From a virus, in IMG/VR virus record IMGVR_UViG_3300045988_168418: a stretch of 56,826 nt of DNA; one strand, given 5' to 3'. Positions 204 to 55,947 of the stretch are shown here, piece by piece. The first letter of the stretch is position 1. Every line of letters starts with the position of its first letter. Made by a program: the position numbers and the translations under genes. Below the pieces are notes generated by a model. That model was not told where the DNA came from and ran no database searches. It was given only the letters and a program-made list of their open reading frames with translations.

Positions 204-959
204 TCAAACAAGGCTCCGAAAAGCGTCTAAATTAGATCCACTAGGGATAGCAAAAATTATTTTTTCAAAAATATAATTATTAGATAATTTCATAAATATC
301 TTTTTAACTTCATTAGGATCTTGACCAAAAGCTCCGCATCCAAAAGCTCCTAAGATTAGAACATCAATTTTATTTTTCGCCGCAATGTCTAAAATAAAAG
401 AAATTCTTTCTTTTAAAGCCTTAGTATTTTCTTCATCTGTTATCCCATTACGCTTAGCTTCTTTTTTATTCGGGGCTGCACAACTAATAATATCACAATT
501 ATAAGAATCTTCAAAAAGAACATTTGGACTATAAATTGCTCGATTCCAATATAAACCGCGATTTATTAAGTTTTTATTTTCTCCATAAAAATCTTCTCTT
601 TGTCGTTGTAAAATATTATAAAGAATAGATTTATGACATAAACTTTCTTCTTGAGTACTATTTCCTTTTAAAAAGCCTCCGCCAGGATATTTAAAAGATG
701 CAAAATTAAGTGCGGCAATCTTACTATTAGGAAATTCAGATACAGCTTTTTTAATAGCATTAACAGTATCAGTTTCCCATATTTCTAAATAATTAAGATT
801 TTTTTCATTCGTTTTCTTTGTTTTATTTACAATAGAACCTGGTACGAAACCACTATAATATTTAGTTCTTGCGTTACACCATGCGATTTTATCTGAATAT
901 TCTTTTTCCATTTTATAAAAATGATTTATGGCTTGAATAGCTCTTTCTTTTTTATTCAT
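204..959 (-). CDS. Bacterial-type poly(ADP-ribose) glycohydrolase-like macrodomain protein (DUF2263/TIGR02452-like)
   Basis: PARG signature GGG-X7-QEE present ('GGGFLKGNSTQEE'); C-terminal 'LGAFGCGAFG' glycine-rich macrodomain-like motif; GAGGA RBS upstream of the ATG at 959. Confidence 0.6.
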   Translation of the reverse strand: MNKKERAIQAINHFYKMEKEYSDKIAWCNARTKYYSGFVPGSIVNKTKKTNEKNLNYLEIWETDTVNAIKKAVSEFPNSKIAALNFASFKYPGGGFLKGNSTQEESLCHKSILYNILQRQREDFYGENKNLINRGLYWNRAIYSPNVLFEDSYNCDIISCAAPNKKEAKRNGITDEENTKALKERISFILDIAAKNKIDVLILGAFGCGAFGQDPNEVKKIFMKLSNNYIFEKIIFAIPSGSNLDAFRSLV

Positions 960-979
960 CTATTAACATCCTCGTTTTA

Positions 980-1168
980 TTAGAACATCGCATTTGCTTG
1001 TTCATAATATTTTAATTCTTGAATCCAAGCGATTGGAATTACCATTTCCGCTTTAGCATATCTTTCTATAGCATCCATAATCTCATTTCTTCTACTATTA
1101 ATTACTTCTAATCTAAAAGCTTCACGCGGAACCAAACCTGCAACTGTCTTTTTTGCTTCATTATTCAT
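980..1168 (-). CDS. Hypothetical 62-aa protein, translationally coupled between the SLOG-like and PARG-like genes
   Basis: ORF with RBS (taaaataggaggaaaa) inside the 3' end of the upstream gene; the upstream gene's TAA and this ATG are separated by 1 nt. Confidence 0.4.
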   Translation of the reverse strand: MNNEAKKTVAGLVPREAFRLEVINSRRNEIMDAIERYAKAEMVIPIAWIQELKYYEQANAMF

Positions 1169-1169
1169 A

Positions 1170-1517
1170 TTATTTTCCTCCTATTTTAATTACTTTACCA
1201 TGCTTTCCATTCATTTTCATTTTCATAATAATTTTTCTAATTATTGCATCTTTTCCGTCATAAAAAAATATACCAAAATCAATATTTTCTACCATTTTCT
1301 GAATTAATTTATCTATGTTGCGATCAAATACATATTCAATAGGAGCACCATTATTTTCTGCCCATATTTTTCCAATAGACTCCGAGAGCTTCTTCTCAGT
1401 ATTCCCGCAAACAACAGTAAATAAATAACATTGCGTTTCGCGGATAAAATCTTCCATAGTTGCGGAGACTAGGCGATTATCTGCGAAACCGCGACTTCCA
1501 AGAATACTAATTCTCAT
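1170..1517 (-). CDS. DUF2493/YspA-type SLOG-family (LOG/DprA-like Rossmann) protein
   Basis: N-terminal 'MRISILGSRGFAD' followed by 'YLFTVVCGN...IGKIWAENNGAPIEYVF' resembles the DUF2493 pattern (MRVLVxGGRxFxD ... VVxHGGAxGAD ... W ... GVPV); judged by eye only. Confidence 0.5.
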   Translation of the reverse strand: MRISILGSRGFADNRLVSATMEDFIRETQCYLFTVVCGNTEKKLSESIGKIWAENNGAPIEYVFDRNIDKLIQKMVENIDFGIFFYDGKDAIIRKIIMKMKMNGKHGKVIKIGGK

Positions 1518-1548
1518 TTCTTTTTCCTCTTGTTTTATTTATAAAATA

Positions 1549-1577
1549 ATTATAACAAAAATTTTTTAAAAAATCCA
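1549..1577 (-). promoter_or_regulatory. Extended -10 promoter (TGtTATAAT) with weak -35 (TGGATT) driving the SLOG-PARG operon
   Basis: Minus-strand TGTTATAAT at 1549-1557; 17-nt spacer; GAGGA RBS before the ATG at 1517. Confidence 0.5.
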
Positions 1578-1598
1578 ATTAAAGTGCTTTAATCAAAT

Positions 1599-1627
1599 TT
1601 GACAAAAAAATTTTTTTGTGGTATAAT
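1599..1627 (+). promoter_or_regulatory. Consensus sigma-70 promoter: TTGACA (1599-1604), 17-nt spacer, TGgTATAAT (1619-1627)
   Basis: Exact -35 and extended -10 hexamers; AGGAGA RBS at 1645-1650 and ATG at 1655. Confidence 0.7.
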
Positions 1628-1654
1628 ATAATTGTAAACTAGAAAGGAGAAATT

Positions 1655-2830: not shown

Positions 2831-4030
2831 ATGAATTATACTTGTAACAAATGCGGAAAGTCAATGGATGAAATAAATTTTTATACATATAAAAATGGTA
2901 AAAAAACAGAATTATGTAAAAAATGTTTAACTATGCATATAAATAATTTTGAACCTAATACTTTCCTATGGGCATTAGAAAAGATGGATGTTCCATATGT
3001 TCCAGAAGAATGGAATATTTTAAGGGATAAAGCCTATGCAAAAGACCCTTATAAAATGAATGGGATGTCAGTATTTGGAAAATATCTTTCTAAAATGCGG
3101 CTAAAGCAGTGGAAAGATTATAGTTGGGCAGATACAGAAAAGATTGCTCAAGAAAAAGAAGAAAAGACTCAAAAGGATCTTGAACAACAGAAAAAGTTTG
3201 AAGAAAGTATGAAGCAACAGCTTGAAAAAGGTGAAATTTCTGAAGCTGAATACAAAACGATGGTTTCTACCCCCACTCAAAACGCGGAATTGGCGGTAAA
3301 AGCTCCTAAGAATGAGATTGGAACTGACAATTTTTATGATGAAAATAATTTTATAAGCGAGGATGAATTAATTGATCCTGCCGCGGAATTAACTCAAGAA
3401 GATAAGATTTACTTAGCTATGAAATGGGGACGTTTGTATAAACCAAATGAATGGGTTGAACTAGAGAAAAAATATGAAGAGATGACTAGTTCTTTTGATA
3501 TTCAAGACTCAGATACTACAGGAACTTTAATTCTTATTTGCAAAACTTATTTAAAGATGAATCAGGCGATCGATTGCGGTGACATGGATGGCTATCAGAA
3601 GTTGTCCAGAGTATATGATTCACTACGTAAATCCGCGAAATTCACAGCCGCACAAAATAAAGAAGTAAAAAGTGATTTTGTAGATTGTATTGGAGAGATG
3701 GTTGCCTATTGTGAAAAAAATGGCGGTCAGATTCCAAGGATGAAAATAGATGCACCAAATGATATAGTTGATAAAGTTATCATGGATTTAAAAGAGTATA
3801 CAAGATCATTAATCTATGATGATAAGTCTCTTGCTCAACAGATAGAAAATTATATTAAGCAGAGAGAAAATGCTGATGCAATGAAGAAAGATAGAGAAGA
3901 AGCTAAAGAAAAAGGCTATAATCAGATAGAAATAAAAGATAGAGATTATCAAGCTTATTTTGAAAATATTGCAAAAGAAAAAGAAGAAGATGAAAAAATT
4001 TATATAGGAGAGGATGAAGACTTTATATGA
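2831..4030 (+). CDS. Hypothetical protein with N-terminal zinc ribbon and charged coiled-coil middle region (candidate small terminase/packaging accessory; function unknown)
   Basis: N-terminus 'CNKCGKSMDEINFYTYKNGKKTELCKKC'; RBS AAGGAGG; sits immediately upstream of the large terminase. Confidence 0.45.
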   Translation: MNYTCNKCGKSMDEINFYTYKNGKKTELCKKCLTMHINNFEPNTFLWALEKMDVPYVPEEWNILRDKAYAKDPYKMNGMSVFGKYLSKMRLKQWKDYSWADTEKIAQEKEEKTQKDLEQQKKFEESMKQQLEKGEISEAEYKTMVSTPTQNAELAVKAPKNEIGTDNFYDENNFISEDELIDPAAELTQEDKIYLAMKWGRLYKPNEWVELEKKYEEMTSSFDIQDSDTTGTLILICKTYLKMNQAIDCGDMDGYQKLSRVYDSLRKSAKFTAAQNKEVKSDFVDCIGEMVAYCEKNGGQIPRMKIDAPNDIVDKVIMDLKEYTRSLIYDDKSLAQQIENYIKQRENADAMKKDREEAKEKGYNQIEIKDRDYQAYFENIAKEKEEDEKIYIGEDEDFI

Positions 4031-4371
4031 GTTTAAAAGGTCTATTAGATTTATCTGAATCTAGAACCCTTAAGAAACAGGGCATGTCAGAAGAAAGACT
4101 AAAAGCTCAACTTCCTCATTTAAGAAATCTAATCGCTTATTATAGAGAATATCCAGACCTTTTGGTAGACTTTATGAAAGGTCCTGAGAGTACTTTTAAA
4201 TTCTTTTTTTATCAGAGAATATTTTTAAGGATTACGATGCGGCATAGGTATGTGTATGCTACTTTTCCACGTGCGTATAGTAAATCATTCTTATCTATGA
4301 TGATTCTTATGTTAAGGTGTATTCTCTATCCTAATTCACATTTGTTTGTTACTACTGGTGGTAAAATATAA
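4027..4371 (+). CDS. terL: Terminase large subunit, exon 1 (N-terminal ATPase with Walker A region)
   Basis: 'FFFYQRIFL...ATFPRAYSKSFL' resembles the T4 gp17-type 'YQR...PRQxGKT' Walker A region; 'FVTTGGK' aligns with gp17 'ILAHKGS'; the ORF stops inside the putative intron. Confidence 0.55.
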   Translation: MSLKGLLDLSESRTLKKQGMSEERLKAQLPHLRNLIAYYREYPDLLVDFMKGPESTFKFFFYQRIFLRITMRHRYVYATFPRAYSKSFLSMMILMLRCILYPNSHLFVTTGGKI

Positions 4372-5341
4372 ATTTTAAAGTAAGGAGGAGCATAAAATGA
4401 GTGCAAAAAACGTCCTAACTAATTTTGAGATAATTGATACTGAAGAAAAAGCTTATTGGCTAGGTTTTTTATATGCGGATGGAAGTGTTGGTTCTAAAGA
4501 AGATAAAATAGAATTGGGGCTTGCTGAAAAAGATTTAAAACATATAGAAAAATTTAGAGATTTTATGAATATAACTAATAAAATTAGCTATAGAGAAAGA
4601 ACAAAATCTTATAGAATGAGTTTTAGGAGTGCTCAATGTAAACAGGATTTAATAGATAAAGGGTGCGTTCCTAAAAAATCATTAATTCTTGATTTTCCAA
4701 ATGAAAAACAAGTACCAAAACATTTAATTAGACATTTTATAAGAGGGTATTTTGATGGCGATGGATGGTTTACAAATACAGAAAGTTGTTTTCAAATAGG
4801 TATAATTGGAACTGAAAATTTTATAAATGGATTTTTAAATTCTATTGAGAATATAAATAAAGATAATAAAATTTTTGATGTTCATAGAAAACATGGAGCT
4901 AAACGATATGTTTTTGGAGCTTATGATGATGTTTTAAATTTTTTAAATTGGATATATAAAGATTCAAATATTTATTTAGAAAGAAAATATGCTAGCTATT
5001 TAGACTTTATACAAAATGGAAGTAAGTATCATAAAATAAAATAAAAATTTTTGCCGTATATTAGAGAAATTTAATATATGATTATTGCGGAATTAAGCGG
5101 GGAAGGCTGAGATGCTAACCCGAACCGAAGGTTATAGGAACTATAGTCAGGGGCAACGCATAGATGGTGAAAAGATATAATCCATCCACGAGTCCGCAAC
5201 ACAGCATTATATAGGAATGCTTGAGACTATCTCACCAATAGTCAAACCTAACGTAAAACGAGGGTGAAAAGATATGCTAAGCTTATACGAAAAAGAAGTA
5301 TAAGAACTAAAGGATAAAAAGCCTTTAGGATAATATAACTG
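4363..5341 (+). other. Group I self-splicing intron interrupting terL (approximate ends: 5' splice after U4362, omega-G at 5341)
   Basis: terL homology resumes in-frame at 5342 with no start codon; a 7-bp P4-like pairing 'ttgcgga' (5085-5091) / 'tccgcaa' (5193-5199) resembles P/Q elements; R-like 'gagacta' (5223-5229) and S-like 'aagatataatcc' (5172-5183); contains a free-standing LAGLIDADG ORF. Confidence 0.55.
4397..5044 (+). CDS. LAGLIDADG homing endonuclease (intron-encoded, two-motif monomeric type)
   Basis: Motifs 'YWLGFLYADGSV' and 'RGYFDGDGWF'; own RBS 'aaggagg' upstream of the ATG at 4397. Confidence 0.85.
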   Translation: MSAKNVLTNFEIIDTEEKAYWLGFLYADGSVGSKEDKIELGLAEKDLKHIEKFRDFMNITNKISYRERTKSYRMSFRSAQCKQDLIDKGCVPKKSLILDFPNEKQVPKHLIRHFIRGYFDGDGWFTNTESCFQIGIIGTENFINGFLNSIENINKDNKIFDVHRKHGAKRYVFGAYDDVLNFLNWIYKDSNIYLERKYASYLDFIQNGSKYHKIK

Positions 5342-6748
5342 AAAGAGCAGGCTGCCAGTATCACCATAGCGAAAATTGAAGAAATATGTAAGCTTATCCC
5401 CGCACTTAATAATGAGCTAGATTGGTCAAGGGGAGCTTCTAAAAAATCAAAAGATGATGTTAATTATATCTTTAAAAATGGTTCTTCTATTGATATATTA
5501 GCCGCTAAACAATCTTCTAGAGGCCAGCGTAGAACGGGTGGTTTAATGGAAGAATGTGTTCTTATAGATGGAGATATATTAAATGAAATAATAATTCCTA
5601 CAACAAACGTTGATAGATTATTACCAGATGGAACTAGACATAAAGAAGAAATAATTAACAAGAGTCAAATATATATTACAACAGCTGGGTGGAAGAATTC
5701 ATTCGCGTATGACAAACTGACGGAACTTTTGGTTCAGTCTATGATTGAGCCTGATAAAGTTATGGTTATGGGTGGAACGTATGAAACGCCTGTTGCGGAA
5801 GGGCTTTTAGATGAAGATTTTGTAGATCAGCTCAAATTACAAGGTACATTTAAAGAAGATTCTTTTGATAGGGAATATCGTTCTAAATGGAGCGGAGATG
5901 CAGAAAATGCATTTTATTCTTCTGAAAAGTTTGATAGGTATAGAGTGTTATCCCAACCAGAATACGAATATAGCGGAAGAAGTAGTAAATCAGCTTATTA
6001 TGTTATAGGGGTAGACGTCGGACGTATAGGCTGCACAACTGAAGCTTGCATATTCAAAGTTACCCCTCAACCGCAAGGAACGGCTTTAAAAAGTTTGGTT
6101 AATATCTATACTTATGAAGCAGAACATTTTGAGACTCAAGCAATTAATTTAAAAAAATTATTTTATAAATATAAAGCTAAAATTATCTCTATTGATGCGA
6201 ATGGCTTGGGTATCGGGCTCATCGACTTCATGACAAGGGCGCAGATTGACCCAGAAACAGGAGATACTCTTCCGCCATTTGGAGTTGAGGGAGGAACATC
6301 AGAGGATGCTATTGCTCCTTACAGAAAAATTAAAGGCGGAGATGTGGAAGATAATGCTTTATATTTAATTAAAGCAAACGCACCAATTAACACTGAAGCC
6401 TATTCATACACTCAGACTCAAATGTCTAGCGGAAAAATTAAATTTTTGAAAGATGAGTCTGAAGCTAAAGCTAAACTAATGTCATCAAAAGTTGGTCAGA
6501 ATATGGATGCGGATAAAAGAAACGAATATCTAAAACCTTTTGTTTTAACAACAATTTTAAGAGAACAAATGCTAAATCTAGTTGAAGAAAATGAAGGAGT
6601 TAATATTATTTTAAAACAATCTTCAAGAGGTATAAAGAAAGATAAATTTTCTGCTTTTATATATGGATTATATTATATAAAGCAGGAAGAAGACCATAAG
6701 AAAAAGAAACGAAGTAGAAATATATCAGATTTTATGTTCTTTAGCTAA
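5342..6748 (+). CDS. terL: Terminase large subunit, exon 2 (rest of ATPase plus nuclease domain); the ORF track starts at 5546 but the frame is open and homologous from 5339
   Basis: Upstream in-frame translation 'KEQAASITIAKIEEICKLIP...IFKNGSSIDILAAKQSSRGQRRTG...ECVLID' parallels T4 gp17 '...NGSxIxAxASSxDAVRGxS...YIDE'; downstream 'GVDVG' and 'SIDANGLG' nuclease-type motifs. Confidence 0.6.
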   Translation, partial: KEQAASITIAKIEEICKLIPALNNELDWSRGASKKSKDDVNYIFKNGSSIDILAAKQSSRGQRRTGGLMEECVLIDGDILNEIIIPTTNVDRLLPDGTRHKEEIINKSQIYITTAGWKNSFAYDKLTELLVQSMIEPDKVMVMGGTYETPVAEGLLDEDFVDQLKLQGTFKEDSFDREYRSKWSGDAENAFYSSEKFDRYRVLSQPEYEYSGRSSKSAYYVIGVDVGRIGCTTEACIFKVTPQPQGTALKSLVNIYTYEAEHFETQAINLKKLFYKYKAKIISIDANGLGIGLIDFMTRAQIDPETGDTLPPFGVEGGTSEDAIAPYRKIKGGDVEDNALYLIKANAPINTEAYSYTQTQMSSGKIKFLKDESEAKAKLMSSKVGQNMDADKRNEYLKPFVLTTILREQMLNLVEENEGVNIILKQSSRGIKKDKFSAFIYGLYYIKQEEDHKKKKRSRNISDFMFFS

Positions 6749-7243: not shown

Positions 7244-8836
7244 GTGTATATCTTGATAAATAGAGTAGCAGAAATAAAGAAGAAGGGGTTCCAAATGAGT
7301 ATTAATGACTCCGCAGAAGATATATATACTCAATCTTTTAATGCAGTAGACTTTTCTAAAATCAAAGTTGGAATAAAAACTTTAGATGATGCTATTGTAA
7401 ACTTAGGAGAGCTAAAAAAAATTAATCCTAGGTTAGCTGATAAAAAAGAAGTTTTACGAGCTATTAATAATGGAGACTATGAAACTATGAGAGATATATC
7501 TAATTTCTTTTATAAAACTAGTGGTATTTATAATAGACTTTGTAGATATATGGCATATTTATATAGATATGATTGGTTAATTACTCCTTATATTAATTCA
7601 GATAATTTAAAGCCAGAAAAAGTATTAGATGGATTTAATAAAGCTTTAATGTATTTAGATAACTTTGAAGCTAAACGTTTTTTTGGGGAAGTTGCATTAA
7701 AAGTTATTAAGAATGGCTGTTATTATGGATATTTGATCCCCCAAAAAGATCGAATGGTAATACAAGAATTGCCGCCCAAATATTGCCGTTCAAGATTTAG
7801 TGTTAATGGACGTCCTGCGGTAGAGTTTAATATGAGATTTTTTGATGAAGCATTTAGAGATACAACTCAAAAGATGAAAATGCTAAATCTGTTTCCTGCG
7901 GAATTTAAGAAAGCTTATATTCTTTACAAAGAAGGAAAATTAAAAGCTGATTTTGCTGGAGATACATCTGGGTGGTATCTATTAAACATTGATAACGTAA
8001 TAAAATTTAACTTGAATGGAGATGATTTTCCAGCTTTCATTTCAGTCATTCCTGCAATTATAGATCTAGACGCCGCACAAGAGCTAGATAGAAAAAAAAT
8101 GCAACAAAAACTATTAAAAATTATCATTCAGAAAATGCCTGTTGATAAAAATGGAGATTTGGTTTTTGATGTAGAAGAAGCTCAACAGTTACATAATAAC
8201 GCTGTGAAAATGTTAGGAAAAGCGATTGGAATAGATGTTTTAACTACTTTTGCTGATGTCGAAGTTGCGGATATGGCTGATAAGAGTTCCACTACTACTG
8301 TTGATGAATTGGAAAAGGTTGAGCGTGCAGTTTATAACGAAGCTGGAGTCTCTCAGATGCAATTTAATACAGATGGAAATATTGCCTTAGAAAAATCTAT
8401 TTTGAATGACGAAGCTTCCATGTATAATTTATTAATTCAATTTGAAGGGTTTTTAAATACATTATTAAAGCCTTTTAATAAGAATCCAAAAAAAGTATAC
8501 TATAAAGCACAGATTTTAACTACAACAATTTATAATTATAAAGAGATGGCTAAATTATATAAAGAACAGACTCAATTAGGTTATTCTAAGATGTTACCGC
8601 AAATAGCTCTAGGTCAATCTCAAAGTTCAATTTTAGCTAATGCTTATTTTGAAAATGATGTTTTAGATTTAGTAAATCTATTTATTCCGCCTTTAATGTC
8701 TAGCACTATGAATGTAGAAGCATTAAACCAAGCAAAACCCGCGGAAGATGGAGAAGAAAAGAAAGCGGGCAGAAAAGAAAAAGCTGATGATGAGAAAAGT
8801 GAAAAAACTATGAAAAATATAGAATCTCAAGGTTGA
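7244..8836 (+). CDS. Portal protein (real start probably ATG 7294, 'MSINDSAEDIY')
   Basis: ~510-530 aa ORF directly after the terminase module, with a charged K/E-rich C-terminal tail; GAAGG RBS before 7294; assignment from position and size. Confidence 0.5.
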   Translation: MYILINRVAEIKKKGFQMSINDSAEDIYTQSFNAVDFSKIKVGIKTLDDAIVNLGELKKINPRLADKKEVLRAINNGDYETMRDISNFFYKTSGIYNRLCRYMAYLYRYDWLITPYINSDNLKPEKVLDGFNKALMYLDNFEAKRFFGEVALKVIKNGCYYGYLIPQKDRMVIQELPPKYCRSRFSVNGRPAVEFNMRFFDEAFRDTTQKMKMLNLFPAEFKKAYILYKEGKLKADFAGDTSGWYLLNIDNVIKFNLNGDDFPAFISVIPAIIDLDAAQELDRKKMQQKLLKIIIQKMPVDKNGDLVFDVEEAQQLHNNAVKMLGKAIGIDVLTTFADVEVADMADKSSTTTVDELEKVERAVYNEAGVSQMQFNTDGNIALEKSILNDEASMYNLLIQFEGFLNTLLKPFNKNPKKVYYKAQILTTTIYNYKEMAKLYKEQTQLGYSKMLPQIALGQSQSSILANAYFENDVLDLVNLFIPPLMSSTMNVEALNQAKPAEDGEEKKAGRKEKADDEKSEKTMKNIESQG

Positions 8837-8855
8837 TTAAATTGGAGGTAGCTAA

Positions 8856-10280
8856 ATGTCAAGAATGAGTATAGCTACAATAGATAGTCCAGAATTTATA
8901 AACGTTTCCCCATATAATCCTTTAATTTCAGAATGTGAAATTAAAGTTTTGTATTTGGGAGAAAATAGAAATCATAGCTATATAAGTAAAGAAGTAGCTA
9001 CAGAGATGGCTAATTCATTACCTGGATGTCCTATTGTAGGTTATTTTAAACAAGATGTAAAAGATTTTGGCGATCATGGGGATCAAGTGGTAATTGATGA
9101 AAATGGAATACATTTTAATTGTCTTACAAAGCCTTATGGATTTGTAGCTCCTAATGCTAAAATTTGGTTTCAAAAATTTGAGGATACAGACGATTTTGGA
9201 AATTCTATTATTAGAGAATATTTAATGACTACTGGGTTTTTGTGGACAGGGCAGTTTGAAGAGGCTCAAGCTGTTGTTGAGCATGGAAAACCACATTCTA
9301 TGGAATTAGATGAAGATTCTTTAAAAGGAGAATGGTCAAAAAATTATAAAACAGGTATAGACTTTTTTATTATAAATGACGCAATATTTTCAAAATTATG
9401 CATTTTAGGAGACAAAGTTGAACCTTGTTTTGAGGGTTCGAACATAACAGCTCCATATGTAAGTACATCGTTCACTAAAGTAGATGATAATTTTAAAAAA
9501 ACTTTATATACTATGATGCATGAATTAAAGGATGCATTAGAAGGAGGACAAATGGCTTTAGAAAAAGATAATAAAAAAGTTTCTGATGAAAAGGACAAAA
9601 AAGAACAAAACTTTTCCGCAGAAAATCAAAATTCTACAGAGGGATTAAATCAAACTGATTTTGTAGCTTCTGATAAAGATAAAAAAGAAAAAGAGGAAGC
9701 TAAAAAAGATCAGCCTAAAAATGATGAAACCACAAAGACAGAAGAAAATGATGAAGATAAGAAGAAAAACTTTGTAAAAAAAGAAGAGGATAAAACTGTT
9801 AAAGAAGAAAAAACTAATACAGAAGATTCTACTTCAAAGGAAGATAAAAAAGACGATAATAAAGCATCTTCTGATGATGAAGAAGAAAAGAAGAAGAATG
9901 ATAAATATACTTTATTAGAAGCTCAATATCAAAATTTACAAAGTAAATACTCTGCATTAGAAGAGGATTTTCAATCATTAGTAGCTTTTAAAAATCAAAT
10001 TGAAAATGAGAAAAAAGATGCTTTAATTAACAGTTTTTATATGCTTTCAGATGAGGATAAGAAAGATGTAGTTACAAATAAAGCTAAATATTCTTTAGAT
10101 GATATTGAAGCAAAGTTATCTGTAATTTGTGTTAGAAAGAAAGTTAATTTTGATTTAGAAAATACCTCAAAAAATGAAAAAGATAATCCTGTTACAACTT
10201 TTAGCCTAGAAGAACAGGATAGTTCTATCCCAGCGTGGATAAATGCTTTAAAAAATACTCGAAACAGTAGAAATGATTAA
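8856..10280 (+). CDS. Scaffolding protein (globular N-terminal half, K/E/D-rich coiled-coil C-terminal half)
   Basis: Lies between portal and capsid; extremely charged low-complexity segment 'KDKKEKEEAKKDQPKNDE...'; coiled-coil 'LLEAQYQNLQSKYSALEEDFQSL'. Confidence 0.45.
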   Translation: MSRMSIATIDSPEFINVSPYNPLISECEIKVLYLGENRNHSYISKEVATEMANSLPGCPIVGYFKQDVKDFGDHGDQVVIDENGIHFNCLTKPYGFVAPNAKIWFQKFEDTDDFGNSIIREYLMTTGFLWTGQFEEAQAVVEHGKPHSMELDEDSLKGEWSKNYKTGIDFFIINDAIFSKLCILGDKVEPCFEGSNITAPYVSTSFTKVDDNFKKTLYTMMHELKDALEGGQMALEKDNKKVSDEKDKKEQNFSAENQNSTEGLNQTDFVASDKDKKEKEEAKKDQPKNDETTKTEENDEDKKKNFVKKEEDKTVKEEKTNTEDSTSKEDKKDDNKASSDDEEEKKKNDKYTLLEAQYQNLQSKYSALEEDFQSLVAFKNQIENEKKDALINSFYMLSDEDKKDVVTNKAKYSLDDIEAKLSVICVRKKVNFDLENTSKNEKDNPVTTFSLEEQDSSIPAWINALKNTRNSRND

Positions 10281-18705: not shown

Positions 18706-21700
18706 ATGGCGGCTACAAATCGTATTGATTTTACAGTTGGCTTTAATACAGACCAAAGCGGTTTATCAACCATTAAGAAGTCATTAGAAGAAATTCAAAA
18801 GATGACTTCTAGTGATTTGATGAGTTTAAATAAAGGTATGGATTTAAGCGAAGCCAATAGCAGATTAACCCAGATAAAAGAATCTGCTAGTCAAGTTCAA
18901 AAAGCGTTAGATAAAGCTTTTAACGCAGATTTAGGAACATTAAATGTTTCTAAATTTAATAACGAATTAAAAAATTTAGATATAAACAAAATTTATAATG
19001 ATTTTAATAGTGCGGGTTCGGCAGGACAAACTGCATTTAAAAATATGACAACTCAGGTTTTAACTACTAATATGCAGTTAAAACAAACTCATAGCTTCTT
19101 AGAAAATATGGCTACAACTTTGTCTAATACTATTAAATGGAATATTGCGTCTGGAGCTATGAACGCATTAACTAATAATGTACAACAAGCAGTTAATTAT
19201 GTTGAGAAATTAGATACTTCATTAAATAATATTAGAGTCGTAACTGGCAAATCTGCGGAAGAGATGCGTGATTTCGCGGAATCTGCAAGTCAAACCGCCC
19301 AGGAACTATCTGCAAGTACGAGAGATATAACTGAAGGAGCTTTAATTTACTATCAACAGGGTGATACAGATGAAAATGCTCTTGCTAAAGCTGAGATTAC
19401 TCAGAAAACCGCGAATGTATCTCAGATTAGCTCAGAACAGGCTGCGGAATATTTAACTGCGGTTTGGAATGGTTATAAAGTAGCTAATGAAGCTGCGGCT
19501 GAAGGAATGGACGTTTATGAAAAATATGTAGATAAGTTAGCGGCTGTAGCAGCTACAACTGCGTCAGACTTGGCTGAATCTTCTATGGCTATTTCTAAAG
19601 TGGCTTCCGCAGCAAGTTCTATGGGTGTTGACTTTGATCAGTTAAATGCTCAGATTGCGACTATTATTTCTGTTACCCGCCAAGCACCAGAATCAGTAGG
19701 TACAGCTTTAAAAACAATTTATGCTCGTATGGGTGATCTAGCTGTTGATGGTGTTGATGAATTTGGAGTTTCTCTTGGTGAAGTTTCTGGAAAGATGAAA
19801 ACAATGGGCATTGACATCTTAGATGAGAATGGTCATCTAAAAGAGATGGGAAATGTTATTGAAGAAGTAGCAGGTAAGTGGAGTACTTGGACAGACGAAC
19901 AAAGACAAGCGGCAGCAGTTGCAATCGCGGGTAAGAGACAGTATAATAACTTAATTGCTTTATTTGATAACTGGGATATGTACACTGATGCTTTAGACAC
20001 TTCTAAAAATGCATTGGGAACTCTTGAAGAGCAACAAGATATTTATTCTGAAAGAACAGAAGCTCATATCCAAAGAATGAGAACTACTTTCGAGGATTTA
20101 TATGACTCTTTATTAAAGCCAGAAGCTATTAATGAAGTTGTTGATGGAATTACTTTTGTTGTAGATAAAATTGCAACATTGGTTGATAATATCGGCGGTG
20201 GTAAGACTGTTCTTGCTGAGTTAGGATCTTTAGGTGTAAGAGTATTTAGTAAACAAATCGCTGGTGGTATTTCTACAACTATAGCTAATTTTAAAAATGT
20301 AAAATCTAATGCTGAACAACTTAATGCTCAGTTAGAGATTCTACAACAGTATAAAGGATTATCTGCATTAGACGAAGATACTAAAGAATTAGTAAATATG
20401 AAGCAAGAGATTGTGGATTTAGGATCTGTTGCTACTACTGAACAACAGAACATTGCTAACGGTTTTATTGAACAAATAAATGCTTTGCAAAATCAAAAGA
20501 AACAGTTAGAAGAGAATGAGGAAGCTGCAAAAAATCTTTATAAGGCTTTAACTAATGAAGAATTAGACTTAGATAGCCTTAGAGGGAAGGGCGAAGGAGC
20601 AAAAAATACAGATACATATGACAAAATTAAGAAGCAAGTAGATGAGACTCAGAAACAATATAAAAGTTTGAATAAAGAAGCCTCTAATTATGCTGGGGCT
20701 TTGACTTTAGCTACTTTTAATCAAAGACAAGCTTCTAAAGATAATTCAAAGCAAGAAGAGGCAATTAAATCTTATGAAGCTTTAACTACCGCTGTAAAAA
20801 ATTATAATGATGAAGTAAAAAAAATAGTTTCTTCAAGTCCAGAAGTCGCAAGTGCTTATGAAAATTTTAATAAGAAATTAAAAGAGTATAGTGAACTCAC
20901 AGGAAATGCTGAAAAATCGGTAGGAGAATTAATTGCGACTTACCCAGAATTAAGCAAAGCTTTCAAAGAGGTAACAGAAGCAAGTAAAGATTATGCTAGT
21001 CAAGCGGCAAGTGATGCACAGAAGGTTATGAAAACTGCACAAGATGTCGCTGCAGGGACAGGGGAAAAAGTAAAAGAAAAGTTAGATGAGTCTCGCTCTG
21101 CATGGAAAAGCTTTATAGATGATGTAAGAAATACTGCGGTTATTCAATCAGCTTTAGACATCGCGGGTTCTATTGGAGAAATAGGTTCTTCTATAGCTGG
21201 TTTAAAAGGAGTATGGGATGTTTTTTCAGATGAATCTTTATCTACAACAGAGAAATTAGGACAATCCTTTACTATTTTGCTTTCTACTTTACCGCTTCTT
21301 ATAAATGGGATTCAAGGACTTCAAGCAGGTCTTATAACTTTGGCTCAAACTGCAATTCCAGCTCTAGCTGGCTCTTCTTTAACTGCGGGGGAAGCATTTT
21401 TAGCATTATTTTCAGCCTCTTGGATTGGTTGGGCTGCGGCGGCGGCAGCAGCGATTGGGATAGTAGTATTCGCTATAGACAAAATGACTGTAAGTGCAAA
21501 AGAAGCAAAAGAAGCTTTAGAGAGTCAATTTGAAGAATATGAGAAGGCTCAACAGGAAGTAGACGAATTAAATTCTAAATTAGAAACGACGCAAGAAAGA
21601 TTAAAAGAACTGTATCAAATTTCTCCAGATGAACTTACTCTTGCACAAAAGGAAGAATTAAGAACCTTAGAAGCTCAAAACGCGGCATTAGCAACACAGC

Positions 21701-24700
21701 TTGAGCTAAGAAAGAAAGTTGCAAAAGCTGAGGAAAAGAAAACAGTAGAAGCCGCAGAACAAGCCGCAAAAAAAGACGCATATGGTAAAGAACTTGACGC
21801 AGCATCGGTAGACGCGTCAGTAGATAGAAGCCAATTAGCAGAGGTATCTGGAGTAGATATTGGAAATGGAAGGAAAGTTCAAGATATACTTCTTGATGAC
21901 TCTGTTGCTAAGTTTCAACTAGGCGATGAGAAAGCTTATAAGGAATATAAAGCTGAAGTAGAATACTCTATTTCTGAAATTAGAGAATTACTAGCGAAAA
22001 AGAATACTGGAATCAATTATGATCAGAGAGAAGCTTTAAGTGCTTATGTAAATAACTTAGAGCATACTCTATCAGCAGTAAATAAGAAATGGGAAAATTC
22101 TTCTGGTGAAGTTTCTAAAAGTTTAACAGACGCGTATAATAACGCTTTAAAACAGATTCCTTTGTTAGAAGAAGCTGGTTCAGAATATGTTGACTATTAC
22201 TATAATATTGTCGAACAGTATTATAGAAAGACAGATACATTAGGTTTCGCTACTAAGCAAGCTTTCGGTGAAGCTTTAAGTGAAAATAAAGAAGCTTTTG
22301 ATAAAATGAAAGCGGAGATAGAAAAAGAAGGCGGAATTGATGTATTATTAGCGGATGATGGCAAAAAGCTACGAAATGTTATAGGTAGTAATGCTTTTGA
22401 ATCTTTAAAAGAATACTCTACTCAAACAGGACTTTCTTTAGAAACTTTATTAAAGAGTCTTGATGAGATTGATGCTAAATATGATGATATTAAAGATGGA
22501 GCATCTATTGCAGCTAACACAGAGAAAAAAGAAATTGAAGAACTAACGAAAAAACAAGAAGAGTATCAAGAAGAATTAGATAAAAAATCTGTAATTGGAG
22601 ATATTTCTTCTCAGTTGGCTAGTGAAGGTAGCTTAGATAAATTAAGTAAAACCAAAGAAGGAAAGGCTACTTTAGAGACTTTTAATCAGATGTTAGAGGA
22701 AACCGCAGGCATCTATAATAAAAATGTAAGTGCGGCTCAAGAGTTTGAAGAAGCTGCTACTAGAGGTGTTCTTGGACAAATAGAATACCTAGAAGATTTA
22801 AGAGAAGCAGATTCTAATTATTATACTGAAGTTATCGAGTTAGAAAAACAAAAATTAGAAGCGGAATTAGATTCTAATAAAAAAATATTAGAAGGATATG
22901 CACAGAGAAAAACTGAATTAACTATGCATATCAATCAGCTAGAGGATATAAGAGAGAAAGAAGGTTCTCTTAGCAAAGAACAACTAGATGAGCTTAGTAA
23001 TGCTCAAGTTGAATTAGAAGCAGTTACAGAAAAATATAATGAATATCAAAACGCTGTTTCAGATACAAAGAAAGAAATAGAGGATACTGATTGGGAATTA
23101 AAAATTGATTTAGCTGGGGTTGAAGAAATCTTAAGCATTGGTGATTCTGTTCTAAGTGAATCTGATAAAATTAGAGAAGCTGCGATGATGATTGGAGAGG
23201 GATATATCGTTGCATCTGAAGATGCTAAAAAATTAGCAGAAGTTTTCCCTGAGATACTAGATGGTGCCCAGGTAATGGCAGATGGACAAATTCAACTTCA
23301 AGAAGATGTTGCTAAAGATGCATTAGGTAATCAAGAAAGTATCCTTGATGGCGATGTAGAATCTACTAACGCTAGAATAGAAAATGAGATTCAACTATTG
23401 ACTGCAAAAAAAGAATCTGCTGAAGCCGAATTAGCGATGGCTAAGTCTGTTGCTGAAGGTGGAGTAAAATTAACTAAAGAACAAATAGAGAAAATTTCTA
23501 ATGGGCGTCAACAACTAACTAATTATTTAATGAAGTTAGGTTTAGAAGAAGCTGATGCTAATAAAGCAGTAGCTGCCGCGATGTCAGGTAATATGGATGA
23601 ATATAATCGTATTACTGCGAATGTTTCAGATGATGTAGCTCATAACTTAGCACAATCTTTATCTGATGCAGCAACGTCAGCTAAGGAAAATTCTTCTAAT
23701 ATGGTTACTTCGGTTTCTGCGGTAGGCGAACAGGCAAGTAAAGTGGCTAACCAAATTAAAAATATGCCTAAAGGAATCAAAACTGATGTTTCGAAAGTGA
23801 ATGTTGGAGGTGGAGGAACAGGAGGTTCGAACTTTACAGCTACCACAAATAAGGGAGATTTTAAAGGAGTCGATCCGGTTGAATCTTCTGCTTCTTTACC
23901 AGAAATAGATGAGTGGATAAGTGATCTTGAGCTAGATATTTCCACTTATGAACAAAGCATTTCTAGAATGAGAGCATTACAAGCAACTTTGTATGAAAAT
24001 GCTGGTTCAACCAAAAAAGCCCTCGATAGTGCAAAATCTGGTTTAGGTGGTTCAACACCTTTTGAAAAAGATAAAAGTGGTAAAGGTGGAAAAGGTGGTA
24101 GTGGAGGAAAAGGCTCTTCATCAGATGCACAAGCAGATACGATGGATTTATTGCAAGATGAGGCTGAAGTATATCACGACATAGATCTTCAAATAAAAGA
24201 TATCACAAAAGACTTAGATGCTTTACAGAAAAAACAAGAAAAGCTTGCTGGTAAAGAACTAACTAAAAATCTTCAAGAACAGTTAGATTTATTAGAAAAG
24301 CAAAAAGAAGCGTATGCTACAAAAATAGAGGTAGCTAAAATTAGGTCTAGTACGTATAAATCTGCACTTAAAGCAGAAGGAGTCACTTTTAACGCAGATG
24401 GAGACATAACTAATTATTTTAAAATTATGCAAACTAAAATGGATAATGTCAATAAAATGATTACTAAATATAATGGCATGTCCAAAGAAGAGCAAAAGAA
24501 ATATAAGCAAACAGTTGAAGCTGCAAAAAAGGATTATGAGAAATTTAAAAAGATTCTTAGCAAATATGAAGAGTTAAATGCAGATGAAAAAGAGATAGAA
24601 AAACAACAGCAAGAAATAGAAGATAAAGCTACAGAAGTAAGAATTAAGAAGTTTACTTTAAAAGTTGACTTAGCTCTTGATACAGCTCAAGCAGAGAGAG

Positions 24701-27234
24701 ATTTTAATGCTTTTAAAAAGAAAGTTATTGATGGCATAAAAGATGATGACTTCGCGGGTCAAGCTAACGCTTTACTATCTAATTTTAGTTCATATGTAAA
24801 GCCAGATGGTACAGGCGAGATTCAAGCTTTAACAGATCAGCTTAATAAAACTAAAAGTGAAATTGAAATTATGGAAGCTGGCGGAAAATCAACTATTTAT
24901 GGAGATAACCTTGCTAAAGCTTATGAAGATTTAGAGAAGTATGAAAAAAATGCGGAAACCGCGTTAGAAAATTATGCACAAATATCAAAGGATATTGAAG
25001 AGACTTATTTAAGTGCAATAGATAAAGCTCAAGAAAAACTAGACGAACAATCAGAACAATATGAATTTATATCTGATTTAATTGACCATGATAAAGATGT
25101 AATTGGTTTAATTTATGGCGATAAAGCTTATTCTCAATTAGCTAAATATTATGAGATGCAAAGAAAAAATAATAATGATAATTTGGACTTTGCAAGAAAA
25201 CAGGTAGAATTCTGGAAACAGAGAATGGATAACGAAGAAAAAGATTCCAAAGCTTGGAAAGAATATAAAGCTAATTATGAAAAAGCGGTTACTGATTTAA
25301 ACTCAAAAGTTAAGAGTTCTATTGAGGAAGTTATTGAAGAATACAAAAATACTATAAATAAAATCTTTGAAGATATTAACAAGAGACTAACCAATGGAAG
25401 CGGATTAGATCATGTTAAAGATCAATGGGATTTAATTAACAAAAATGCAGATATGTATTTGGATAGTATCAATTCTTCTTTTGAAATTCAAAAACTTCAA
25501 AATAAGTATTTAGATTCTATTGATAATACAAGTAGTTTATCTGCTCAAAAGAAATTGAATAACCTGATGAATGAGCAAATTGAAATGCTTAAAGCTAAGG
25601 AAAAATTGACTCAATATGACGTAGATCGTGCTAATGCACTATACGAAATAGCTTTAAAAGAAATTGCTTTGCAAGATGCTCAAAAAAATAAGTCAAAAAT
25701 GAGATTGAGACGTGATTCTCAAGGAAATTATAGTTATCAATATGTTTCTGATGAAGACAGTATAGCTCAAGCACAGCAAGAGCTATTAGAAGCTCAAAAT
25801 TCTCTCTATAATTTGGATAAAGACAAGTATAAGAGTAATTTAGATGAAATCTATAGCACTTATTCTGAGTTCCAACAGAAATTATTAGAACTGTATTCAG
25901 ATACCACTCTTGCAGATGAAGAAAGAGAAGAAAAGAAAAAGTTATTAGCAGAACAATATGGCGAAATAATAAATAACTTAGTTGAACAAAATGAGCAAGT
26001 TAAGCAGAATCTTCAGGATACAACTTTCCAAGAATTAGCTAAAAAGTATAATACCGATGTAGCTAACTTCCAAGGAATGTCAGATGAGGAAAAGAGAATC
26101 TTAATGGAGAGCATGATTCCGCAATGGAATTCAGGCGTTCAGCAAATGACTGATAAATTTGCGGGAGAAGGCGGTTTTATTCCAACTTGTGAAAATGCCT
26201 TTAAACAGCTAGATGAAGCTTTGCTTACTTACAAGAATAATTTAAGCGAAACAAGCGAACGCTCAGGGGTAGATTTCAACAAGATTGCTGAAGGATATGA
26301 TATGAATATCCAAAAAGCTAAAGAGCTTCTTGAGGAAAATGATAAGTTACTTGAAAAATACAAGGCTCAATTAGAAGCTGTTCAAGATGTACTTCAAGAA
26401 GTAAAACAGTTAGAAGAAGCTTATAGAGGTGTTGCGGCAGCTGCTATTTCTGCGGTTACAGAAGCTAATAAATTAAAGCAACAGAAGGATAAAGAAGCGA
26501 GAGAAGCAGCAGATAAAGAGGCTGCTGAAAATGGTAAAAGCGGAGATAATAACAAGAATAACAAAAGTAATAAAGGTGGAGGAAAGACTACAATCGTTGA
26601 TGTCAAAGCGGATCCTTCTGATACTCCAGCAAGTGCAGTTGACATGGACGAAGGTAGTAAGAAATTTAAAGTTGGAGATAAGGTTAAATTACTAAAAGGA
26701 AAAAGATATTATTATACGTCTGAAGGAGCTGAACCTTCAGGAAATAGAGGAGCTGGACAGAATAAACCTGGTACAATTACTCAGATTGAAAAGGGAGCTA
26801 AAAAGCCTATTCATGTTCAGAGTAATGACGGTCCATTCGGATGGCTTACGAAAGATGATATCAAGAAATTTGATACTGGTGGATATACTGGAGCATGGAA
26901 CGGAAATGAGGGAAAAGTTGGTATTCTTCATCAAAAAGAATTAGTTTTGAATAAAGAAGATACTAAAAATTTCTTATCTGCTATGAATGTTGTTAGAAGT
27001 TTAGACAGTGTTTTAGATACAATTAATGCATCTATGATGGATAGACTGATTGGGTTACTAGCTCAGACTACTACTTCTTTGAGCGGCTTTTCCGCATCTC
27101 AAGATTTGACTATTGACCAGAAAGTCCAAATAGAAGCTTCTTTCCCGAATGTTCAAAATTCTGGAGAAATTGAAAAGGCATTTAAAAATTTAGTAAATTA
27201 TGCAAGTCAACACGCATATGATACTAAACGTTAG
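18706..27234 (+). CDS. Tail tape measure protein, 2842 aa
   Basis: Giant alpha-helical/coiled-coil ORF; hydrophobic segments 'LSTLPLLINGIQGLQAGLITLAQTAIPALAG...WIGWAAAAAAAIGIVVFAI'; Gly-rich stretches 'GGGGTGGSNF' and 'GKGGKGGSGGKG'; sits between the chaperone and distal tail genes. Confidence 0.85.
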   Translation: MAATNRIDFTVGFNTDQSGLSTIKKSLEEIQKMTSSDLMSLNKGMDLSEANSRLTQIKESASQVQKALDKAFNADLGTLNVSKFNNELKNLDINKIYNDFNSAGSAGQTAFKNMTTQVLTTNMQLKQTHSFLENMATTLSNTIKWNIASGAMNALTNNVQQAVNYVEKLDTSLNNIRVVTGKSAEEMRDFAESASQTAQELSASTRDITEGALIYYQQGDTDENALAKAEITQKTANVSQISSEQAAEYLTAVWNGYKVANEAAAEGMDVYEKYVDKLAAVAATTASDLAESSMAISKVASAASSMGVDFDQLNAQIATIISVTRQAPESVGTALKTIYARMGDLAVDGVDEFGVSLGEVSGKMKTMGIDILDENGHLKEMGNVIEEVAGKWSTWTDEQRQAAAVAIAGKRQYNNLIALFDNWDMYTDALDTSKNALGTLEEQQDIYSERTEAHIQRMRTTFEDLYDSLLKPEAINEVVDGITFVVDKIATLVDNIGGGKTVLAELGSLGVRVFSKQIAGGISTTIANFKNVKSNAEQLNAQLEILQQYKGLSALDEDTKELVNMKQEIVDLGSVATTEQQNIANGFIEQINALQNQKKQLEENEEAAKNLYKALTNEELDLDSLRGKGEGAKNTDTYDKIKKQVDETQKQYKSLNKEASNYAGALTLATFNQRQASKDNSKQEEAIKSYEALTTAVKNYNDEVKKIVSSSPEVASAYENFNKKLKEYSELTGNAEKSVGELIATYPELSKAFKEVTEASKDYASQAASDAQKVMKTAQDVAAGTGEKVKEKLDESRSAWKSFIDDVRNTAVIQSALDIAGSIGEIGSSIAGLKGVWDVFSDESLSTTEKLGQSFTILLSTLPLLINGIQGLQAGLITLAQTAIPALAGSSLTAGEAFLALFSASWIGWAAAAAAAIGIVVFAIDKMTVSAKEAKEALESQFEEYEKAQQEVDELNSKLETTQERLKELYQISPDELTLAQKEELRTLEAQNAALATQLELRKKVAKAEEKKTVEAAEQAAKKDAYGKELDAASVDASVDRSQLAEVSGVDIGNGRKVQDILLDDSVAKFQLGDEKAYKEYKAEVEYSISEIRELLAKKNTGINYDQREALSAYVNNLEHTLSAVNKKWENSSGEVSKSLTDAYNNALKQIPLLEEAGSEYVDYYYNIVEQYYRKTDTLGFATKQAFGEALSENKEAFDKMKAEIEKEGGIDVLLADDGKKLRNVIGSNAFESLKEYSTQTGLSLETLLKSLDEIDAKYDDIKDGASIAANTEKKEIEELTKKQEEYQEELDKKSVIGDISSQLASEGSLDKLSKTKEGKATLETFNQMLEETAGIYNKNVSAAQEFEEAATRGVLGQIEYLEDLREADSNYYTEVIELEKQKLEAELDSNKKILEGYAQRKTELTMHINQLEDIREKEGSLSKEQLDELSNAQVELEAVTEKYNEYQNAVSDTKKEIEDTDWELKIDLAGVEEILSIGDSVLSESDKIREAAMMIGEGYIVASEDAKKLAEVFPEILDGAQVMADGQIQLQEDVAKDALGNQESILDGDVESTNARIENEIQLLTAKKESAEAELAMAKSVAEGGVKLTKEQIEKISNGRQQLTNYLMKLGLEEADANKAVAAAMSGNMDEYNRITANVSDDVAHNLAQSLSDAATSAKENSSNMVTSVSAVGEQASKVANQIKNMPKGIKTDVSKVNVGGGGTGGSNFTATTNKGDFKGVDPVESSASLPEIDEWISDLELDISTYEQSISRMRALQATLYENAGSTKKALDSAKSGLGGSTPFEKDKSGKGGKGGSGGKGSSSDAQADTMDLLQDEAEVYHDIDLQIKDITKDLDALQKKQEKLAGKELTKNLQEQLDLLEKQKEAYATKIEVAKIRSSTYKSALKAEGVTFNADGDITNYFKIMQTKMDNVNKMITKYNGMSKEEQKKYKQTVEAAKKDYEKFKKILSKYEELNADEKEIEKQQQEIEDKATEVRIKKFTLKVDLALDTAQAERDFNAFKKKVIDGIKDDDFAGQANALLSNFSSYVKPDGTGEIQALTDQLNKTKSEIEIMEAGGKSTIYGDNLAKAYEDLEKYEKNAETALENYAQISKDIEETYLSAIDKAQEKLDEQSEQYEFISDLIDHDKDVIGLIYGDKAYSQLAKYYEMQRKNNNDNLDFARKQVEFWKQRMDNEEKDSKAWKEYKANYEKAVTDLNSKVKSSIEEVIEEYKNTINKIFEDINKRLTNGSGLDHVKDQWDLINKNADMYLDSINSSFEIQKLQNKYLDSIDNTSSLSAQKKLNNLMNEQIEMLKAKEKLTQYDVDRANALYEIALKEIALQDAQKNKSKMRLRRDSQGNYSYQYVSDEDSIAQAQQELLEAQNSLYNLDKDKYKSNLDEIYSTYSEFQQKLLELYSDTTLADEEREEKKKLLAEQYGEIINNLVEQNEQVKQNLQDTTFQELAKKYNTDVANFQGMSDEEKRILMESMIPQWNSGVQQMTDKFAGEGGFIPTCENAFKQLDEALLTYKNNLSETSERSGVDFNKIAEGYDMNIQKAKELLEENDKLLEKYKAQLEAVQDVLQEVKQLEEAYRGVAAAAISAVTEANKLKQQKDKEAREAADKEAAENGKSGDNNKNNKSNKGGGKTTIVDVKADPSDTPASAVDMDEGSKKFKVGDKVKLLKGKRYYYTSEGAEPSGNRGAGQNKPGTITQIEKGAKKPIHVQSNDGPFGWLTKDDIKKFDTGGYTGAWNGNEGKVGILHQKELVLNKEDTKNFLSAMNVVRSLDSVLDTINASMMDRLIGLLAQTTTSLSGFSASQDLTIDQKVQIEASFPNVQNSGEIEKAFKNLVNYASQHAYDTKR

Positions 27235-27236
27235 AT

Positions 27237-27268
27237 AAGAGAGGTTTTATAACCTCTCTTATTTTTTT
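27237..27268 (+). terminator. Rho-independent terminator
   Basis: 'aagagaggtt-ttat-aacctctctt' followed by T8. Confidence 0.7.
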
Positions 27269-27338
27269 GGACATTTTTATTTAAAAATCTTTAATAAAAA
27301 ATTATATTTTATATAAAGAGAGAAAAGGAGTGTATAAG

Positions 27339-55946: not shown

Positions 55947-55947
55947 A

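Follow-up and report, generated by a model that had tools for sequence, protein, structure and literature searches.

Close to the left-hand edge of the window analysed here, a stretch of 56,826 nucleotides of viral DNA (IMG/VR virus record IMGVR_UViG_3300045988_168418), three minus-strand genes encode a SLOG-like protein, a small protein of 62 aa and a PARG. Do they form a single system for processing ADP-ribose (ADPr) and countering host defence, as a first-pass annotation proposed, or have genes of separate origin come to share one transcript? The explanation that we favour, with a probability of roughly 0.55, is that the locus combines two evolutionarily independent elements, a degenerate SLOG and a recent PARG eraser cassette. 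The three open reading frames (ORFs) themselves were each present where the first-pass annotation had placed them. The features on which the argument turns are as follows:

1170–1517, minus strand: SLOG-like gene (115 aa)
980–1168, minus strand: small ORF (62 aa)
204–959, minus strand: PARG gene (251 aa)
192–982, no strand: PARG presence/absence cassette of ~790 bp, in place of which relative L111 has 55 nt

The distal gene had been read as a bacterial-type PARG, and profile searches bear this out. Its 251-aa product matched both families expected of such an enzyme above their curated thresholds, PF10021 with 91.9 bits (cut-off 23.5, E 6.6e-26) and TIGR02452, over residues 23–242, with 175.5 bits (cut-off 50, E 1.5e-51). 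Among solved structures, it matched the PARGs of D. radiodurans (DrPARG, 5ZDA, residues 73–238, E 2.8e-21) and T. curvata (TcPARG, 3SIG, E 4.7e-19). The catalytic GGG-X7-QEE signature, GGGFLKGNSTQEE, lies at residues 92–105 (G92-G93-G94, FLKGNST, Q103-E104-E105) and aligns with GGGFLGGAQAQEE of DrPARG, the catalytic loop of that enzyme. The diphosphate loop GAFGCGAFG was found at residues 204–212, where LILGAFGCGAFGQDP aligns with LVLGAWGCGVFRNDP of 5ZDA. Across 18 homologs Q103, E104, G93, G94 and the loop from G204 to Q213 were invariant, and E105 was conserved in at least 90%. By its sequence, the 251-aa protein belongs to the bacterial-type PARGs (DUF2263/TIGR02452) and has the catalytic signature intact, and its homology to the solved structures predicts a macrodomain fold.

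The phage protein shares with the bacterial-type PARGs (T. curvata 3SIG, D. radiodurans 5ZDA, S. coelicolor SCO0909 and C. difficile CdPARG) a curated hidden Markov model family, the GGG-X7-QEE signature, a glycine-rich diphosphate loop and a length of about 250 aa, and it would be expected to hydrolyse the 1''-O-glycosidic bond of ADPr as they do. Unlike them it is AT-rich, is ~30–35% identical to the solved enzymes and has no linked PARP or ADP-ribosyltransferase (ART), and its nearest relatives stand in phage RNA-repair neighbourhoods. Hydrolysis of poly(ADP-ribose) (PAR) has been reported for TcPARG, HaPARG, DrPARG and CdPARG (PMC8120803, PMC5966428). Within a tested panel of bacterial hydrolases, the ADP-ribosylation of RNA 2'-OH groups by RhsP2 was reversed solely by bacterial-type PARGs (PMC11833690). 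Amongst GenBank phages, a PARG was found only in the Lak megaphages, in Bacillus phage G (gp114) and in two uncultured records.

The proximal gene had been assigned to the DUF2493 SLOG proteins, a call that holds on structure, domain fusions and transitive homology but not on a direct Pfam match or on the canonical motifs. Alone, the 115-aa protein scored 21.1 bits against PF10686 (DUF2493), under the Pfam gathering threshold of 28.2. An exhaustive profile search of 1.84 billion proteins recovered a family of 97 cluster representatives. Just six of the 64 aligned subfamily members matched PF10686 at E <= 0.01 (best E 3.2e-14), and a small canonical DUF2493 profile matched the subfamily with E 4e-13. 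In three tandem proteins (P0126, P0128 and L097) the family forms the second, C-terminal half and follows an intact canonical DUF2493 domain in the N-terminal half (PF10686 E 6.8e-16). An AlphaFold model based on the family alignment has five strands and four helices with a predicted local distance difference test score (pLDDT) of 94.6. Its top Foldseek matches among viral models were DUF2493/'YspA cpYpsA-related SLOG' proteins of phages and giant viruses, with a template modelling score of ~0.8. The modelled fold is a three-layer alpha/beta Rossmannoid to which the structures of YpsA, DprA and LOG are nearest, as befits the SLOG superfamily. A sequence search of the PDB with the protein and the family profile returned only chance-level matches or designed Rossmann proteins, and no homolog was found among GenBank phages. 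On the modelled structure and transitive homology, the 115-aa protein is a degenerate SLOG of a YspA/DUF2493-related subfamily.

The extent of the degeneration was determined by alignment with four canonical reference domains (P0126N, P0128N, P0215 and L097N). Like YspA/DUF2493 (PF10686, YAcAr), the subfamily keeps the five-strand, four-helix Rossmannoid fold and the GSR..F.D, CG and WA..G elements. It has lost the GxxGxD (GGAxGAD-type) loop after strand 2 and the S/P-GT after strand 4, and the DW..YG..AG..RN insert is deleted. Conserved residues specific to the subfamily are F33, W52-A53, G57-A58-P59, D80 and G104-K105-H106-G107, with GAP, D80 and GKHG invariant, and the loops that bear the canonical motifs are variable within it. 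In the topology of the model, most of these conserved residues lie at the strand-start ends and the usual nucleotide cleft is opposite, on the strand-end side, which suggests a non-catalytic binding or partner role. The protein is most likely a ligand-binding or partner module and not an enzyme, judging from the motifs and the model. Whether it could bind or cleave ADPr-related nucleotides, as first suggested, is uncertain given that the canonical DUF2493 motifs are absent.

The product of the middle gene has 17 homologs with 73–100% identity, all of them from one phage clade, and no match to it was found in Pfam, NCBIfam, PHROG or PADLOC. In an AlphaFold2 model (pLDDT 81) the N-terminus is disordered and is followed by a hairpin of two helices (residues 15–39 and 46–61), for which a search of PDB folds gave nothing significant (best E 2.5). 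When all three proteins were searched, PADLOC gave no match at E <= 0.1, and the only PHROG matches had E values of at least 0.047, none of them significant.

The association of the three genes was examined in comparison neighbourhoods of ±5–6 kb, in which ORFs were called by a crude longest-ORF approach. In 18 of 19 SLOG-subfamily loci, the SLOG-like gene was found head-to-head with a homolog of the divergent gene that encodes a 387-aa protein in the window, at identities of the 387-aa protein from 99% down to 53%. This synteny indicates that the SLOG-like gene has long been first in the operon of this lineage. A YpsA/DprA-like SLOG gene lies directly upstream of it in L095, L096, L098 and L099. 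DUF488-N3a (PF22751), which we take to be a relative of DUF4326, was found directly downstream in L098 and L099, farther along the operon in L096 and as a fusion in P0173. Elsewhere the neighbours were unrelated small ORFs. The repeated pairing or fusion of a degenerate SLOG with an intact SLOG or DUF488-N3a suggests that, in SPβ-like gut phages, the leftward operon begins with a modular locus for nucleotide or ADPr processing.

The PARG gene was found only in loci whose 387-aa protein shares 96% or more of its residues with the window copy. When relatives L111 and L001 were compared using blastn, the flanking sequences were 92% and 89% identical, and bases 5978–6768 of L001, equivalent to 982–192 in the window, had no counterpart in L111. 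No PARG remnant was detected in L111 by tblastn, and the SLOG-like gene and the 62-aa ORF are retained there. The PARG gene thus appears to be a recently acquired single-gene cassette, independent of the SLOG-like gene.

These comparisons bear directly on the possibility that the three genes are an integrated system in which the SLOG protein binds or cleaves an ADPr-derived nucleotide, the PARG removes ADPr marks and the two work together. Co-transcription and tight spacing would fit such a system, as would the fact that the trio is retained by five or more sequenced relatives (L001, L011, L108–L110 and L112). SLOG and Macro domains are also known to co-occur, and occasionally to be adjacent, in DNA viruses (PMC9503650). 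In the loci compared here DUF488-N3a weakly links the two families, being adjacent or fused to the SLOG subfamily and within 5 kb of a PARG in two confirmed loci, and is the sole common thread between them. Against this stand the absence of the PARG alone from L111, and the finding that no PARG is present within 5 kb in the 13 other viral SLOG-subfamily loci or in L005. Outside the tight clade, SLOG-subfamily loci contained neither the PARG nor the small ORF, which is confined to one clade. PARG relatives were encoded on 172 viral-contig stretches, from which 80 loci were kept. Two of these are this phage, and in none of the 78 others was a SLOG-subfamily, canonical DUF2493 or YpsA-like gene confirmed within 5 kb of the PARG. 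In a 139-kb contig (085326) that includes both a PARG and a SLOG-like gene, the two are ~95 kb apart. A survey of co-occurrence had been recommended by the first-pass annotation, and the adjacency across divergent genomes that would mark a recurring unit was not seen, the trio being limited to one tight clade. An integrated trio is therefore rather unlikely. One marginal DUF2493-like match beside the PARG, in L024, was set aside as unsupported by Pfam.

The three genes are co-transcribed, yet they do not make up an obligate three-component system. The stop codon of the SLOG-like gene and the start codon of the small ORF form TAAtATG, leaving a gap of 1 nt, and an AGGAGG lies within the upstream gene, so that coupling of these two genes, as read from the sequence, is tight. 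Between the small ORF and the PARG gene the gap is 20 nt and the PARG ATG is preceded by its own GAGGA ribosome-binding site, an arrangement of close spacing and not of strict coupling. The translational coupling that had been proposed for all three genes consequently stands for the first junction but not for the second. Further features of the region are:

1557–1549, minus strand: extended -10 element TGTTATAAT for the SLOG-like/small ORF/PARG operon, read from the sequence, with a weak -35
1599–1627, plus strand: divergent consensus sigma-70/sigmaA-type promoter TTGACA-17-TGnTATAAT, with 12/12 hexamer matches plus the TG
1–128, no strand: two tandem 64-bp repeats, 95% identical, found by repeat search directly downstream of the PARG stop

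The back-to-back promoters described in the first-pass annotation were thus both recovered, an extended -10 on the minus strand and a perfect consensus on the plus strand. The plus-strand promoter is ~70 bp from TGTTATAAT and serves the gene for the 387-aa protein and the structural arm. The TGTTATAAT element was omitted from a consensus promoter scan because its -35 matches fewer than 4/6 positions. A GAGG ribosome-binding site is found 8 nt 5' of the ATG of the SLOG-like gene at 1517. A terminator scan of positions 1–1800 detected no intrinsic terminator after the PARG gene (0 sites). No terminator-like hairpin was found at the 64-bp repeats, of which relative L001 has only ~1.3 copies. The G+C content of the three genes (28–32%) does not deviate from that of the window (30.6%).

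The PARGs of other large phages recur beside a C5 DNA methylase (19 loci), an RNA ligase (9 loci), Thg1 (7 loci), an isochorismatase-family protein (7 loci) and DUF2828/DUF7788 (7 loci). Three of the closest homologs from outside the clade (46–48% identity) were examined, and two of them lie directly downstream of an AAA_33, Metallophos and RNA_lig_T4_1 fusion, the third being near Thg1. These RNA-repair neighbours of the nearest PARGs suggest that the macromolecule relevant to this PARG lineage is RNA, which would, by analogy, be consistent with the published removal of ADPr from RNA 2'-OH groups.

In L113 (3772–5940) and L117 (3809–5989), the gene directly upstream of the PARG homolog encodes a fusion of ~725 aa made up of an AAA_33 kinase, a metallophosphatase and a T4-type RNA ligase 1. 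A conserved unannotated gene, of 177 aa in L113 and 232 aa in L117, comes after the PARG homolog, with Band_7 proteins nearby, and the arrangement may be a PARG-containing RNA-repair cassette. In L115, a phage-like contig, an IS605 OrfB/TnpB (Cas12f-like) gene was found at bases 8313–9509, a few genes downstream of the PARG homolog.

Such neighbourhoods also raise the possibility that the PARG serves RNA repair or metabolic housekeeping, clearing ADPr by-products or adducts that arise from the phage's own tRNA or RNA repair or from NAD turnover and not from a defence ART. RNA ligase, Thg1, Pnkp-Rnl fusions and the isochorismatase-family protein all recur beside phage PARGs, and Macro domains have been described as having a part in RNA repair linked to KptA (PMC9503650). 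However, the window and its flanks yielded no gene for RNA repair or NAD salvage. The PARG moreover occupies a promoter-proximal accessory slot and shows presence/absence variation of a kind typical of host-range or counter-defence genes, and a housekeeping role is unlikely.

A further alternative is that the PARG reverses or limits ADP-ribosylation by an ART or PARP-like enzyme encoded by the phage itself, the two forming a writer/eraser pair. Active bacterial PARP-PARG pairs are found in Clostridioides and Herpetosiphon (PMC5966428) and ARTs are encoded by many large phages, although in siphoviruses they are rare, at ~3% (PMC9503650). No ART/PARP domain was detected in the 30 window proteins scanned or among the precomputed Pfam hits of the flanks, a negative that covers ~55% of the genome, the other ~45% being outside the inspected part. 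We consider self-regulation of this kind very improbable.

Under the favoured reading of two independent elements, the SLOG-like gene would be the ancient, lineage-conserved first gene, encoding a minimal YspA/DUF2493-type SLOG domain that acts independently of the PARG as a ligand-binding or partner module. The PARG cassette would be expressed from a host-type promoter shared with the SLOG-like gene and with the gene for the clade-specific 62-aa hairpin protein. Its product would hydrolyse ADPr 1''-O-glycosidic linkages, namely those in PAR chains and, by analogy with bacterial-type PARGs, those that join ADPr to RNA 2'-OH groups. In this way it could erase the ADP-ribosylation of RNA or protein by ARTs of the host or of competitors, as an orphan 'antitoxin-like' form of counter-defence. 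The enzyme class is firmly assigned, and the substrate and the counter-defence role are proposed by analogy. The circumstantial features are an orphan hydrolase, a promoter-proximal slot and a presence/absence polymorphism, and on these the PARG is a plausible, if fairly ordinary, counter-defence candidate. The idea of an ADPr-centred counter-defence put forward in the first-pass annotation is likewise reasonable by analogy with the phage AdfN and DarG-like hydrolases (PMC11825919, PMC11481870).

AdfN, a NADAR protein of T4-like phages, provides the precedent for orphan phage ADP-ribosylhydrolases acting in counter-defence (PMC11825919). For other folds, this role is experimentally established. 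Both AdfN and the DarG-like macrodomains of ICP1 and the chimalliviruses resemble the protein studied here in being stand-alone phage hydrolases without a cognate toxin that are proposed to erase defence ADP-ribosylation. Unlike these, it is a PARG-type macrodomain and not a NADAR or DarG protein, is known here from its sequence alone, and is not matched by the PADLOC models, which include defence-system proteins. The bond that it cuts is likely to be O-glycosidic (ribose 2'-OH or PAR) and not that of base-linked ADPr in DNA.

The general theme had been described already. A viral network of SLOG, Macro, NADAR and DUF4326 domains centred on ADPr was set out by Iyer, Burroughs, Anantharaman and Aravind in 2022 (PMC9503650), with a predicted role against ADPr-derived signals. 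Like that network, the present locus unites a SLOG gene with one of the Macro superfamily, in a single early operon of a large phage, and its SLOG subfamily is linked or fused to the rhodanese-phosphatase-type domain DUF488-N3a. It is unlike it in that the Macro member is of the PARG type, the SLOG is degenerate and YspA-like, and their adjacency is not conserved. It is also from a siphovirus, and the survey found Macro domains in ~1% of siphovirus genomes. The earlier statement, which recognised no described system here, is hence accurate for the exact trio, but not for the SLOG and Macro association or its predicted role. Modest further interest lies in the subfamily of degenerate SLOGs and in the naturally occurring relatives with and without the PARG.

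A more specific version of that theme is that the PARG acts against Thoeris or related TIR signals, cleaving the ribose-ribose O-glycosidic bond in 2'cADPR and in 3'cADPR, isomers of cyclic ADP-ribose (cADPR), a bond of the type cut in PAR, with the degenerate SLOG serving as a decoy or sponge that resembles the SLOG sensor of ThsA. More broadly, the head of the operon could be a hotspot directed against ADPr-derived signals, in which the SLOG is a decoy, sponge or sensor and the enzymes (an intact SLOG, DUF488-N3a or a PARG that cleaves the same ribose-ribose bond) are interchangeable. Phage Macro and SLOG domains have been predicted to target soluble ADPr derivatives (Iyer et al., PMC9503650), and the existence of RyDEP, a phage ribose-ribose glycosidase that acts on Thoeris signals, shows that the strategy is real (PMC13232231). 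NAD/ADPr-based defences are reported to target SPβ-group phages (DSR2 and DSAD1). In concept, the Tad1 and Tad2 sponges and RyDEP, which cuts a ribose-ribose linkage (PMC13232231), are similar, being small early proteins of phages by which immune signals derived from ADPr are bound or cleaved, but no sequence or fold relationship with the PARG or the SLOG-like protein was detected. No PARG is known to cleave a cADPR isomer, and RyDEP is, according to its preprint, the sole degrading enzyme known (PMC13232231). In addition, the loops that bear the canonical motifs are variable in this SLOG subfamily, the nearest PARG relatives are in contexts of RNA repair and not of signal degradation, and the phage is without a host assignment. 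The anti-Thoeris role is improbable, and the hotspot is as much of a long shot. Were the latter true, the PARG would represent a second, macrodomain-based class of Thoeris-signal glycosidase beside RyDEP.

Several points weigh against the reading of a degenerate SLOG plus an independent counter-defence PARG. In comparisons of the PARG gene with close relatives, the ratios of synonymous to non-synonymous codon differences were 9:9 and 10:11, small counts that indicate only moderate constraint. Literature searches turned up no biochemical, genetic or other experimental work on a phage PARG. The view of the SLOG-like protein as non-catalytic is drawn from motif loss, and many of the loci compared share a single IMG/VR dataset as their source and are not independent. 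No RNA ligase, Pnkp or Thg1 was found in the ~77 kb of this phage that was inspected (window and flanks), so the RNA-repair link comes from relatives only, and the same ~77 kb contained no NAD-salvage or ART gene. As this is ~55% of a genome of ~135 kb, an ART partner encoded by the phage may lie elsewhere. No relative of the SLOG-like protein was found in the bacterial genome collection and no tRNA was found in the window by ARAGORN, so that neither points to a host.

If the PARG is indeed a counter-defence protein, its clade joins the NADAR and DarG-like hydrolases as phage erasers of ADP-ribosylation, and ADP-ribosylation of RNA 2'-OH groups or poly-ADP-ribosylation would be indicated as a defence chemistry in gut Firmicutes. 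Relatives with and without the PARG, together with the variable SLOG partners, provide a ready comparative framework. Nothing in the proposal is mechanistically unexpected, the action of phage Macro and SLOG proteins against ADPr-based immunity having been predicted earlier.

The window encodes a DnaE-type polymerase III alpha subunit, NrdD/NrdG, guanylate kinase, dUTPase, RuvC and a UvrD-like helicase, and YonG_N and YonD_N are carried by proteins nearby. The phage belongs to the SPβ-like siphoviruses, related contigs measuring ~135–140 kb, and its host is an anaerobic gut bacterium, probably a Firmicute. The sole DNA-level match among deposited phages was a human faecal contig. The operon is the promoter-proximal end of a leftward, non-structural transcription unit, which crosses ~1.25 kb of repeat-rich non-coding DNA beyond the PARG gene and continues into a long block of small genes. 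It had been placed at the left end, where the window stops but the genome does not. A genome end at the operon was rejected, as the same DNA is internal to source contigs of 80–140 kb that extend tens of kb past the PARG.

Beyond the left edge of the window, bases 6960–8020 of L001 are non-coding and contain dense TGTCAATRG...TGCACAAA repeats and several TTGACA/TATAAT promoter-like sites. Such a region might serve as a regulatory or operator array, or be like an origin. Rfam scans of the window gave no match. Two giant ORFs span bases 18706–31940 of the window, one for a tape-measure-like protein of 2842 aa that includes a PhageMin_Tail domain and the other of 1536 aa, with internal 56-nt repeats at 30726–31513 and no Pfam match.

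A 580-aa gene that is intact in the close relatives L108 and L112 is interrupted in the window (4027–6748) by a 976-bp insertion at 4366–5341, which carries a LAGLIDADG homing-endonuclease ORF (4397–5044). The two halves of the gene, 4027–4365 and 5342–6748, are 99% identical to the intact gene and are in different reading frames, which indicates that the insertion is a self-splicing intron rather than an intein. Rfam found no group I or group II intron in the 976 bp. Within the insertion, the 33 nt at 5246–5278 are identical to a sequence of Clostridium phage c-st. Near the right end of the window, two small minus-strand genes each carry at their 5' end a copy of an 81-nt direct repeat (55867–55947 and 56578–56658, 79% identical), which suggests that these genes are paralogous.

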